A DNA stretch of 64,000 bases. Origin: Escherichia coli (GTDB taxonomy: Bacteria > Pseudomonadota > Gammaproteobacteria > Enterobacterales > Enterobacteriaceae). Each line of letters begins with the position of its first letter. The first letter of the stretch is position 1. The stretch lies in NCBI RefSeq assembly GCF_003019035.1, contig NZ_CP027447.1; one strand, 5' to 3'. This document shows, piece by piece, positions 61,486 through 63,677 of this stretch. The notes beneath the pieces are model-generated. The model worked only from the letters and a program-made list of their open reading frames with translations. It was not told the DNA's origin and made no database searches. The position numbers and the translations under genes are program-made.

Positions 61486-61752
61486 TTATTGCCTGGTTGA
61501 CGCTTCTGAATCGTAATGCACCACGCACTGCCAGTCGCTGCCCTGCTGGCAATATATCGCTTCGGTCTGCCCAGGGATCACCCATTGTATTTCCTCGCCG
61601 GGCAGACAGGTCAGCCAAATGCATAACCCGCAGCCGCCGCGTAAATCACGGGGAATATCGCTGACGCGAAAAGTCATGCCCGCTGCCTGCAACGCCTTAC
61701 GGGTTTGTATGACGCCGACCGTGGAGTGAAATAAAAATAAAAACTCTTTCAT
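61486..61752 (-). CDS. Small hypothetical protein translationally coupled to yjiL
   Basis: 88-aa ORF whose start overlaps the yjiL stop (61749..61752). Confidence 0.35.
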   Translation of the reverse strand: MKEFLFLFHSTVGVIQTRKALQAAGMTFRVSDIPRDLRGGCGLCIWLTCLPGEEIQWVIPGQTEAIYCQQGSDWQCVVHYDSEASTRQ

Positions 61753-62522
61753 CGGCGTTTTCTCACTCGTTGACCAATTACCGCTGCGCCAATTGCGCCA
61801 GCAAATTGCGCATCAGGATGGGTATTTACCGGCATTCCCAGATGAGATTCCAGCATCCGGGCAAACGTCTGGCAATGACTAACGCCACCAGTAAACAGAA
61901 TCGGCGCTTCACAGGAGAGACGATCAATGAAATTGGCACTCCGCCGCGCCATCGCGTTAATCACTCCGGCGAGAATCGCTTCTGGCGCGACGCCCGCTGA
62001 GCGCAGGCTGATCACTTCTGATTCGGCAAACACTGTGCACATACTCGTGATGGCGTGCGGTCTGACATTTTCAGTAATGCTGTCGAGTTGCTCGACGCTG
62101 GTGCCAAGCGTGCGCGAGATCAGCTCCAGGAAACGCCCGGTGCCCGCCGCGCATTTGTCATTCATCAGGAAATCGCACAGGTTACCGTCATCATCAAGCT
62201 GAATCACTTTGCTGTCCTGACCACCGATGTCGATTACTGCGCGCGTTGCTGGCGCAAGAAACCGTGCGCCTAGCCCGTGACAGGAGATTTCCGTCACCTG
62301 TTTATCGGCAAAATCCACCAGTTGCCGTCCGTAGCCGGTGAGCGTCAGAAACGGCGTTGTTTCTAACCCTTCGCGCAGAGTTTCCCAGGCTTCAGTAATT
62401 GCTGTTGCCGGGCGAAAGGGTGTTGGAACGAGGAAACGGCGCGTAATCACGCCGTCTGCCAGTAAGATCCCTTTGGTGGCGGTTGAGCCGGAATCAATGC
62501 CAATCGAATATGCCACTGCCAC
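61749..62522 (-). CDS. yjiL: BadF/BadG/BcrA/BcrD-type ATPase (2-hydroxyacyl-CoA dehydratase activator-like) YjiL
   Basis: 257-aa ORF, MAVAYSIGIDSGSTATKGILL... acetate/sugar kinase-fold ATPase; synteny. Confidence 0.75.
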   Translation of the reverse strand: MAVAYSIGIDSGSTATKGILLADGVITRRFLVPTPFRPATAITEAWETLREGLETTPFLTLTGYGRQLVDFADKQVTEISCHGLGARFLAPATRAVIDIGGQDSKVIQLDDDGNLCDFLMNDKCAAGTGRFLELISRTLGTSVEQLDSITENVRPHAITSMCTVFAESEVISLRSAGVAPEAILAGVINAMARRSANFIDRLSCEAPILFTGGVSHCQTFARMLESHLGMPVNTHPDAQFAGAIGAAVIGQRVRKRR

Positions 62523-62525
62523 TCC

Positions 62526-63677
62526 TTACAGCATCTCAATAAAGGCCGCGACACGGGTGCTGAGCTGCCCGATATCTGAGGTGGAGTAGTCTGTTTCAAT
62601 AGCGATATAAGGAATGTTGTGCTGATGACGCACATGACGTTTAATCGCCAGCGATTCCACCGCGTAGGTATGGCACGCCTGCAAAATCACATCAACTACG
62701 CCATCGACCTGATATTCTTCAACCATCTGGCTGAGCATTTGCAGGCGCTGATCGTTCGGCGAAACACAGGAGCAGCCAATCGCCAGATATTTATCCGCCA
62801 GCGCGTCGTAGACATCGCCCGTTTCTGCCACGCATTGCTCGGTCGCTTTCGCCCCGGTGCAGTTTTCATAACCGACAACCCAGCCGCCATTCTCTTCAAT
62901 CGCGCGCACCACTTTTTCTGCTGCGCCGCCAATCGGGCAGCCGGTGATTAAAATGCGCGGACGCGGGTCCAGTCGCTGGCCTTCTTCCCACTGCTGACGA
63001 ACGCGGGCGGTCATTGCATCCAGTTCATTGATCAACGCCTCTTTATCGAACCGGAAGGTTGCGCCGTAAACCACTTTCAGAATGTCGCTGCCGCTAAGCG
63101 CCGGAGGATTTAACTGCCCCAAATGATAAAAGTTGGCCAGTGCGCGACGTTCGCGGTTTTTCAGCACAATGGCATCGCGCAGAGCATCTTCGCTAATCTC
63201 GTGCCCAAAACGTTCTTCTACCGTTTTTTGCAAGCGCAGCATCTCGGCTTTCCATAACGCGCGTGAGGCATCGTCCTTAACGCTGTTTGGCAGTTGCATC
63301 ACATGAACGGGCTTAAATTCCGCCATGTATTCATACATTTTCTTTTTGCCGTCGCAGGTGGTTTCACCCACCACCAGATCGGAAAAGTAGAAGTAGGGGC
63401 ATTTATCGGTTTTGCCGAAGCCGTAGCTGCTTTTAATCAGCGGGCAGAGATTACGCGGCAGGTCTTTTTCCGCTTCTTCAATGGTTTCATCAGAGGTGGA
63501 ACAGAGTGAAACCACAACCGCACCGGCTGCCATTGGGATCTCTTGCGGCATAAAAGTACAGTAGGTACCAACCAGCGGAATGCCGCGCTCCTTGAGATCC
63601 ATGACGGTGAGAAAGCCTTTCTGGCGAGCTTCAGAGAACTGATCGAAAATGGCGGGTAGATCGGTGACAAGTGACAT
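62526..63677 (-). CDS. yjiM: 2-hydroxyacyl-CoA dehydratase component-like protein YjiM
   Basis: ORF track 62526..63698; likely start MSLVTDLPAIF...; cysteine-rich; synteny. Confidence 0.7.
   Translation of the reverse strand: MSLVTDLPAIFDQFSEARQKGFLTVMDLKERGIPLVGTYCTFMPQEIPMAAGAVVVSLCSTSDETIEEAEKDLPRNLCPLIKSSYGFGKTDKCPYFYFSDLVVGETTCDGKKKMYEYMAEFKPVHVMQLPNSVKDDASRALWKAEMLRLQKTVEERFGHEISEDALRDAIVLKNRERRALANFYHLGQLNPPALSGSDILKVVYGATFRFDKEALINELDAMTARVRQQWEEGQRLDPRPRILITGCPIGGAAEKVVRAIEENGGWVVGYENCTGAKATEQCVAETGDVYDALADKYLAIGCSCVSPNDQRLQMLSQMVEEYQVDGVVDVILQACHTYAVESLAIKRHVRHQHNIPYIAIETDYSTSDIGQLSTRVAAFIEML

Follow-up and report, generated by a model that had tools for sequence, protein, structure and literature searches.

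In Carboxydothermus hydrogenoformans, a double-cubane cluster protein (DCCP) and its reductase DCCP-R (CHY_0487/CHY_0488; PDB 6ENO and 7YYL) are encoded by a gene for an HGD-D-fold protein followed by a gene for an ASKHA [4Fe-4S] ATPase. The ATPase is a [4Fe-4S]-bridged dimer that uses ATP to drive an electron into the double-cubane cluster, which reduces substrates beyond the reach of dithionite-level reductants; acetylene, hydrazine and azide are among the compounds that DCCP reduces (PMC7317905). As of 2022, no physiological substrate was known for any DCCP. Here we analyze a locus with the same gene order, yjiM-yjiL, and a small third gene, ytiA, in a 64,000-nucleotide (nt) window of an Escherichia coli genome (RefSeq assembly GCF_003019035.1, contig NZ_CP027447.1). 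Positions below are those of the window, and all three genes lie on its minus strand.

Other known systems share parts of this design. The 2-hydroxyacyl-coenzyme A (CoA) dehydratases (HgdAB/HgdC, HadBC/HadI; 1HUX, 3O3M, 4EHT) have activators close to YjiL, and their subunit 3O3M_B has the HGD-D fold in common with YjiM (E = 3e-13). These enzymes are alpha/beta heterodimers with one three-cysteine [4Fe-4S] cluster per subunit and have CoA-ester substrates. In contrast, YjiM is the product of a single gene, carries a seven-cysteine motif and has no CoA-pathway neighbors. Nitrogenase, with its Fe protein and MoFe protein, likewise uses ATP to inject one electron at a time into a complex Fe-S catalytic cluster, the donor being an ATPase dimer bridged by a [4Fe-4S] cluster. 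The nitrogenase ATPase has a P-loop NTPase fold rather than an ASKHA fold and its cluster is other than [8Fe-9S], which makes this an analogy, not a homology. Finally, YtiA matches PF11823 and keeps the invariant cysteine of the DUF3343 or ‘Se_S_carrier’ proteins, a family whose name is a prediction from gene neighborhood (PMC5322559). Lin et al. 2015 (PMC5322559) tabulated STRING partners of DUF3343 in Slackia, and an activase and an HGD-type subunit were listed there.

We propose, with good confidence as to molecular identity and general mechanism, that yjiM-yjiL-ytiA, an operon activated by FNR and induced under anaerobic conditions, encodes a very-low-potential double-cubane reductase driven by ATP, together with a translationally coupled cysteine carrier of the DUF3343 family. 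By homology we show the family assignments, the conserved putative ligands, the gene order, the conservation of the genes and the translation of ytiA. The genes, their families and the translation of ytiA are already known. RefSeq names the product of yjiM ‘double-cubane-cluster-containing anaerobic reductase’ and that of yjiL ‘putative 2-hydroxyacyl-CoA dehydratase activator YjiL’, while the small gene, called ytiA (b4715) in K-12 MG1655, is an annotated coding sequence in all sampled E. coli genomes. The genes are ordinary, and no new element is added to the E. coli map. What is new here is the clustering of DUF3343, YedF, SelD and cysteine-desulfurase-like genes near DCCP/activase pairs.

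The predicted cluster protein YjiM and its ATPase YjiL

yjiM (62526-63677) encodes 383 amino acids (aa) from its annotated ATG, and its longest open reading frame (ORF) extends to 63698. The protein scores 406 bits against the Pfam HGD-D family PF06050 and 530 bits (cutoff 350) against the NCBIfam double_cubane model NF040772, a match that spans the full model (positions 1-372 of 372). The solved structure nearest to it is 6ENO (E = 1.1e-74, 39% identity over 360 residues); a word-index homolog search returned only enterobacterial proteins, 86-98% identical.

The cysteines point the same way as the family models. The DCCP motif of seven cysteines comprises six cluster ligands and one cluster-adjacent cysteine. 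Nine of the 11 cysteines of YjiM align with cysteines of the Carboxydothermus DCCP. In a three-way alignment all seven motif cysteines (C40, C59, C78, C108, C273, C302 and C335) match cysteines of 6ENO, and C93 and C304, beyond the motif, are conserved too. The printed spacing pattern of the motif is off by 1-4 residues in YjiM and by 1-2 in the solved 6ENO itself. The locus has the arrangement of NF040772-type systems, with a single HGD-D gene and an activase-type gene, yjiL, 9 nt downstream. YjiM is, as judged from these features, a predicted double-cubane [8Fe-9S] cluster protein and not a classical 2-hydroxyacyl-CoA dehydratase. A DCCP review names it a possible class II DCCP that has YjiL as its partner and is without the N-terminal channel-closing helices (PMC7317905).

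YjiM and YjiL might instead form a true 2-hydroxyacyl-CoA dehydratase or a related CoA-ester enzyme, with YtiA as an unrelated accessory. Such an enzyme would explain the HGD-D membership of YjiM, the dehydratase activator that is the best solved relative of YjiL, and the start of YjiM about 36 residues later than that of the Carboxydothermus DCCP, where the missing residues close the substrate channel. However, the dehydratase models fit YjiM poorly (HadC, NF052456, 93.5 bits against a cutoff of 700; HadB, NF052455, 18 against 750), and its motif is the seven-cysteine double-cubane one rather than the three-cysteine one of dehydratases. A HadBC- or HgdAB-type alpha/beta pair also needs a paralogous second subunit gene, and the locus has one HGD-D gene. 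No CoA-transferase, acyl-CoA or hydroxyacid dehydrogenase gene neighbors the operon in Escherichia, Klebsiella, Citrobacter or Atlantibacter. We consider a CoA-ester enzyme highly unlikely. Benzoyl-CoA reductase (Bcr/Bzd) was rejected on similar grounds: scores fall far below cutoff for BzdN (77.6 against 453.8), BcrC (57.4 against 421) and BzdQ (161.9 against 380), and in place of a four-subunit gene set the locus has one ATPase gene and one HGD-D gene.

yjiL (61749-62516), read from the GTG at 62516, encodes 255 aa. An earlier, sequence-only reading of the window had given its product a BadF/BcrA-type ATPase N-terminus, and this is borne out. The motif IGIDSGSTATKG is found at the N-terminus, the ASKHA phosphate-binding segment GIDSGSTATKG occupies residues 6-16, and the protein scores 254.6 bits against PF01869 (BcrAD_BadFG) and 363 bits against TIGR00241 (cutoff 125). 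That reading had also described YjiM as a cysteine-rich, dehydratase-like partner. The superfamily of YjiM and its putative Fe-S-binding cysteines stand, and alignment with 6ENO brings out the full motif, but the double_cubane score sets YjiM apart from classical dehydratase subunits.

Among solved structures, YjiL is closest to 1HUX, the activator of 2-hydroxyglutaryl-CoA dehydratase (E = 6.8e-53), and 4EHT (E = 3e-52) and DCCP-R itself (7YYL_E, E = 4.4e-47) also match. Both of its cysteine motifs, NDKCAAGTGRF and CTVFAESEV, have aligned counterparts in 1HUX and 4EHT; the literature assigns a cluster-ligand role to these two activase cysteines, C115 and C152 in DCCP-R. YjiL is accordingly annotated here as a predicted ASKHA-fold [4Fe-4S] ATPase (an ‘archerase’, or DCCP reductase) and the probable electron donor to YjiM.

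The mechanism that we propose for the pair follows from the characterized Carboxydothermus system. YjiL would be a homodimeric ASKHA ATPase with one bridging [4Fe-4S] cluster. A ferredoxin or flavodoxin would pass an electron to it, and ATP binding and hydrolysis would then inject that electron into YjiM. YjiM, a homodimer with an [8Fe-9S] double-cubane cluster, would use it for substrate reduction.

The start of yjiL deserves a remark of its own. Two in-frame GTG candidates lie at 62514-62522, and the longest ORF begins at 62522, two codons upstream of the RefSeq choice. The GTG at 62516 has a GGAG five bases upstream, and the GTG at 62522 overlaps that Shine-Dalgarno-like sequence.

The small gene ytiA and the three-gene unit

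ytiA (61486-61752) is an 88-aa ORF in the window haplotype and encodes 85 aa in K-12. Its product scores 48.4 bits against PF11823 (Se_S_carrier/DUF3343; cutoff 25). We identified 132 homologs at 56-98% identity in Escherichia, Citrobacter, Klebsiella, Raoultella, Kosakonia, Atlantibacter and Phytobacter. Alignment of 20 enterobacterial homologs revealed a near-invariant stretch of about 45 residues at the N-terminus, including DIPRxLRGGCGL, and a variable C-terminal third. A profile search over 1.84 billion representative proteins extended the comparison to distant DUF3343 members. Across 30 of these (19-60% identity), F8, P34 and C41 are the only invariant positions. The codon of the invariant Cys41 lies at 61630-61632, and that of a second cysteine, Cys44, at 61621-61623.

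Selection and translation also mark ytiA as a gene. Among Escherichia, Klebsiella, Citrobacter and Atlantibacter, the ratio of nonsynonymous to synonymous substitution rates (dN/dS) is 0.08-0.28 for ytiA, compared with 0.02-0.08 for yjiM and 0.05-0.18 for yjiL, which indicates that purifying selection acts on ytiA, although the gene evolves far more rapidly than yjiM and yjiL. Ribosome profiling of enterohemorrhagic E. coli (EHEC) EDL933 reported a novel 267-nt ORF, X070, with a footprint density of 53 reads per kilobase for every million reads mapped (RPKM) and a ribosomal coverage value of 3.58, which is as high as the values for novel genes reach; the promoter predicted for it is that upstream of yjiM (PMC4765031). 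The X070 sequence in the supplement of that study is 86/88 identical to the ytiA ORF of the window (PMC4765031). ytiA is a genuine gene, not a chance ORF.

An AlphaFold2 model of YtiA (mean confidence score, pLDDT, 91) shows a beta-alpha-beta-beta-alpha-beta-beta domain in which a loop is formed by residues 33-42 and Cys41 sits at its end. A PDB sequence search with YtiA gave no meaningful match, and sequence and fold searches returned no solved DUF3343 structure.

The three genes form one unit. Between yjiM and yjiL is a 9-nt spacer (62517-62525), which holds the GGAG upstream of the yjiL start. yjiL and ytiA share an ATGA (61749-61752), in which the TGA stop of yjiL (61751-61749) overlaps the ATG start of ytiA (61752-61750), an arrangement consistent with translational coupling. 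In Klebsiella, Citrobacter and Atlantibacter (loci L096-L098) the triad recurs with proteins of 383, 255 and 81-84 aa, the first two genes 9 nt apart and the last two overlapping by 4 nt. A contig of 32% GC carries the same triad with the 4-nt overlap; its DCCP is 82% identical to YjiM, its ATPase 64% to YjiL and its DUF3343 protein 35% to YtiA. The genes around the triad, by comparison, are entirely different among Escherichia, Klebsiella, Citrobacter and Atlantibacter, and none is CoA-related. The E. coli operon is flanked by yjiN (DUF445), mdtM, and yjiK or espX6. Within E. coli, megablast of 61200-64000 against 5,426 complete genomes detected the region in 5,386, with 5,295 at 80% coverage or more.

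For this part of the locus the sequence-only reading holds well. It had placed yjiM, yjiL and an 88-aa ORF at 61486-63677, which proved exact, and had seen in the overlap with the yjiL stop a sign of a coupled third component, a description that fits ytiA. The two checks that it suggested for the small ORF, conservation across Enterobacteriaceae and ribosome occupancy, are answered by the 20 homologs, in which DIPRxLRGGCGL is invariant, and by X070. We agree with it, too, that the physiological function of the module is poorly defined in E. coli.

As for regulation, yjiML is among the operons directly activated by FNR (Myers et al. 2013, PMC3688515), and yjiM is listed with FNR-regulon genes in other transcriptome papers. 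We presume that the operon promoter lies in the 115-nt yjiN-yjiM spacer (63678-63792). Promoter and terminator scans of 61150-64000 gave nothing relevant, with no sigma-70 match in the spacer and counts under the shuffle mean. An Rfam scan of 61000-64000 at E-values up to 1 gave one chance-level match only and no Rfam element.

Putative carrier genes and selenium genes at DCCP loci

Several published observations connect DCCPs and DUF3343 proteins with selenium. DUF3343 has been linked to YedF, selenocysteine lyase and SelD (Lin et al. 2015, PMC5322559), 955/970 DCCPs are found in SelD-encoding genomes (Haft preprint), and a later preprint tied DCCP provisionally to selenium metabolism. We surveyed gene neighborhoods by scanning one genome per species with an alignment of three DCCPs. 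This yielded 80 diverse DCCP loci from Firmicutes, Deltaproteobacteria, Actinobacteria, Chloroflexi and Bathyarchaeota, with 50-97% identity to the Carboxydothermus DCCP. Neighbors were called on six-frame ORFs with hidden Markov models (HMMs) built for this analysis.

An activase gene accompanies the DCCP at 63/80 loci, and 34/80 carry at least one of DUF3343, TusA/DsrE-like, Aminotran_5, Sulf_transp or SelD. DUF3343 occurs at 18 loci (12 within 1 kb of the DCCP/activase block), TusA/DsrE-like genes of the YedF type at 20 (13 within 1 kb), Aminotran_5 genes, which here are class-V aminotransferases of the cysteine desulfurase/selenocysteine lyase type, at 11 (6 within 1 kb), SelD at 11, and YedE-like Sulf_transp genes at 3 (none within 1 kb). 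The carrier genes are concentrated at the block: DUF3343 density per 100 kb is 7.9 within 1 kb versus 0.45 at 5-10 kb, and YedF-like density 8.6 versus 0.23. Gene orders include DCCP-DUF3343-activase and DCCP-activase-DUF3343. Viewed from the other side, distant DUF3343 genes adjoin a DCCP/activase pair, TusA with a class-V aminotransferase, a TusA-DsrE fusion or a YedE-like Sulf_transp transporter.

Re-scoring with public models upheld these calls. DUF3343 neighbors exceeded the Pfam cutoff in 5/5 cases (49-77 bits), and the PxPRxxSxxCG motif is kept in the DCCP-adjacent proteins. All eight SelD calls re-scored lay above the equivalog cutoff of TIGR00476 (125 bits). The tusA HMM had also caught DsrE-like halves, which NCBIfam models re-assigned to the YedF type: selenium-metabolism YedF models were best for 12/12 neighbors. 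Five of these are full-length (TIGR03527, 203-225 bits, cutoff 110), five consist of the C-terminal half only (104-109 bits), and two are short forms below the cutoff. Such clustering around DCCP/activase pairs favors a function in the handling of selenium (or sulfur).

Some features of these loci stand apart from the counts. SelD segments beside DCCPs (L062:2190-3005, L034:16037-17029, L081:5206-5910 and L072:12815-13813) begin at position 12-13 of the SelD model, right after an in-frame stop, as a UGA-encoded selenocysteine near the N-terminus would look. Many loci (L034, L053, L070 and L082, also L052, L061, L069, L076 and L078) have a second DCCP paralog and one shared activase, with the order DCCP-DUF3343-activase-DCCP2 in Lachnospiraceae and Tissierellia, for example; the E. 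coli DCCP is single-copy. At L034:7899-8453, downstream of a Sulf_transp-TusA pair, an ORF of about 185 aa matches DUF3343 partially three times. It may be a duplication or fusion of the carrier domain, with a first copy that is without the canonical PxxxxxxCG motif.

Considering how a carrier could serve the reductase, we propose that YtiA would be made in step with YjiL through the ATGA overlap, as a ferredoxin-like single-domain protein whose exposed loop presents the invariant Cys41. This cysteine could bind selenium as a perselenide or sulfur as a persulfide and bring it to the active site of YjiM or take it away from there. The module would support selenophosphate synthesis by SelD in that it mobilizes or reduces a selenium species; it might, for instance, convert Se(0) or carrier-bound perselenide to selenide. 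Gene neighborhoods are the basis for supposing that YtiA offers selenium or sulfur to the reductase and that the system provides SelD with selenide, and we put this forward tentatively, as a possible function.

The same neighbors could have a different job. YtiA, YedF and the cysteine-desulfurase-like proteins might be maturation or repair factors that supply the ninth, bridging sulfide (or selenide) of the cluster. Their recurrence beside DCCP genes would fit this, a single exposed cysteine on the carrier suits atom delivery, and the Haft preprint lists the cofactor itself as a formal possibility for what links DCCPs to SelD. Nevertheless, Carboxydothermus DCCP made in E. coli gave the [8Fe-9S] structure, and the available part of that report mentions no cognate carrier. 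A near-identical locus from Carboxydothermus islandicus (L014) has no carrier gene in the flanks examined, and such genes are missing from most DCCP loci. Co-location with SelD, a selenide consumer, better fits a relation of substrate to product. We therefore regard a maturation role as quite unlikely.

A closer call concerns the element that is handled. The module might serve sulfur rather than selenium, for example by reductive release or transfer of sulfane sulfur from a YtiA persulfide, and the selenium link of the family would then be a by-product of anaerobic lifestyle. DUF3343 occurs in organisms that lack SelD, and no selenium-specific subfamily could be defined (PMC5322559). DUF3343 genes also adjoin TusA, Sulf_transp and cysteine-desulfurase-type genes, and ytiA of E. 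coli adjoins no selenium gene. Against this, the DCCP neighbors match the selenium-metabolism YedF model, not TusA or YeeD, and a bona fide selD is present at 11 of the 80 loci, versus about 1% expected for a single-copy gene within 10 kb. Persulfide reduction, moreover, does not need ATP-energized electrons. A sulfur-only role seems to us rather unlikely.

A number of observations weigh against an FNR-activated double-cubane operon that serves selenium metabolism. We infer the [8Fe-9S] cluster of YjiM from its cysteines only. The DCCP review proposed a CoA ester or other large substrate for YjiM because the N-terminal channel-closing helices are missing (PMC7317905), and the DUF3343 family as a whole is not selenium-specific (PMC5322559). 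At 46/80 DCCP loci no selenium or sulfur gene lies within the flanks examined, among them L014, whose protein is 97% identical to the characterized DCCP; the E. coli operon adds a coupled DUF3343 gene that this Carboxydothermus-type locus does not show. The 80 loci are phylogenetically redundant, with several from Desulfosporosinus, Tepidibacter and Pelotomaculum. The selD and yedEF genes of E. coli lie elsewhere on the chromosome. Classical screens for selenoprotein-deficient mutants are not known to have yielded genes other than selA to selD. Regarding regulation, a search with the FNR consensus TTGATNNNNATCAA at up to two mismatches found no site in the 115-nt spacer. The nearest match (63878-63891) is inside yjiN, and because the window total of 67 barely exceeds the shuffled expectation of 51, we claim no FNR site.

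The adjoining island and the meaning of the operon

Over 61200-64000 the window haplotype is closest to E. coli E7-1N7 (99.0% identity), a strain from an agricultural environment in South Korea, and its identity to most strains is about 96-97%. E7-1N7 is the only one of the 5,386 genomes that is at least 99% identical over this interval, most being 95-99% identical, which suggests that the lineage behind the window is one that has been sequenced less often. Between ytiA and the yjiK homolog lies an intact 657-aa pentapeptide-repeat ORF (59200-61173, minus strand). The surrounding 59000-61500 is a low-GC island, at 31-39% GC versus about 55% in yjiLM. RefSeq names the O157:H7 counterpart, which is frameshifted there, ‘T3SS effector pentapeptide repeat protein EspX6’. 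The espX6 island is wholly missing from K-12 and BL21.

The edge of this island may reach into ytiA. In the 3' third of the gene (about 61486-61570), the window/O157 and K-12 haplotypes are near-identical up to about codon 62 and then diverge sharply, giving different tails to the 88-aa and 85-aa proteins. Between the window and BL21, the synonymous divergence (dS) is 0.34 for ytiA and 0.07-0.11 for yjiL and yjiM. The divergence past codon 62 and the raised dS of ytiA together place a boundary of the espX6-island haplotype inside the variable C-terminal region of ytiA.

A more specific proposal than selenium handling, and one that we hold doubtful enough to offer as speculation, is that YjiM-YjiL-YtiA, and DCCP systems generally, provide the ATP-driven step, so far missing, by which selenophosphate synthetase obtains its selenide. 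Selenium bound to a cysteine of YtiA, or of YedF in other taxa, would be offered to the double-cubane cluster, and the cluster would reduce it to selenide at a potential hardly within the reach of ordinary cellular reductants. The Se(0)/HSe- couple lies at a very negative potential, which would make sense of a reductase energized by ATP.

If this proposal is true, it would provide the first physiological substrate for DCCPs and would identify a selenium-delivery route that is genetically testable in E. coli. The E. coli operon would be a minimal, three-gene, FNR-controlled version of the system in a tractable organism. The neighborhood statistics replace the vague label of a ‘putative dehydratase’ with a specific, testable hypothesis of a selenium or sulfur carrier acting with a double-cubane reductase.

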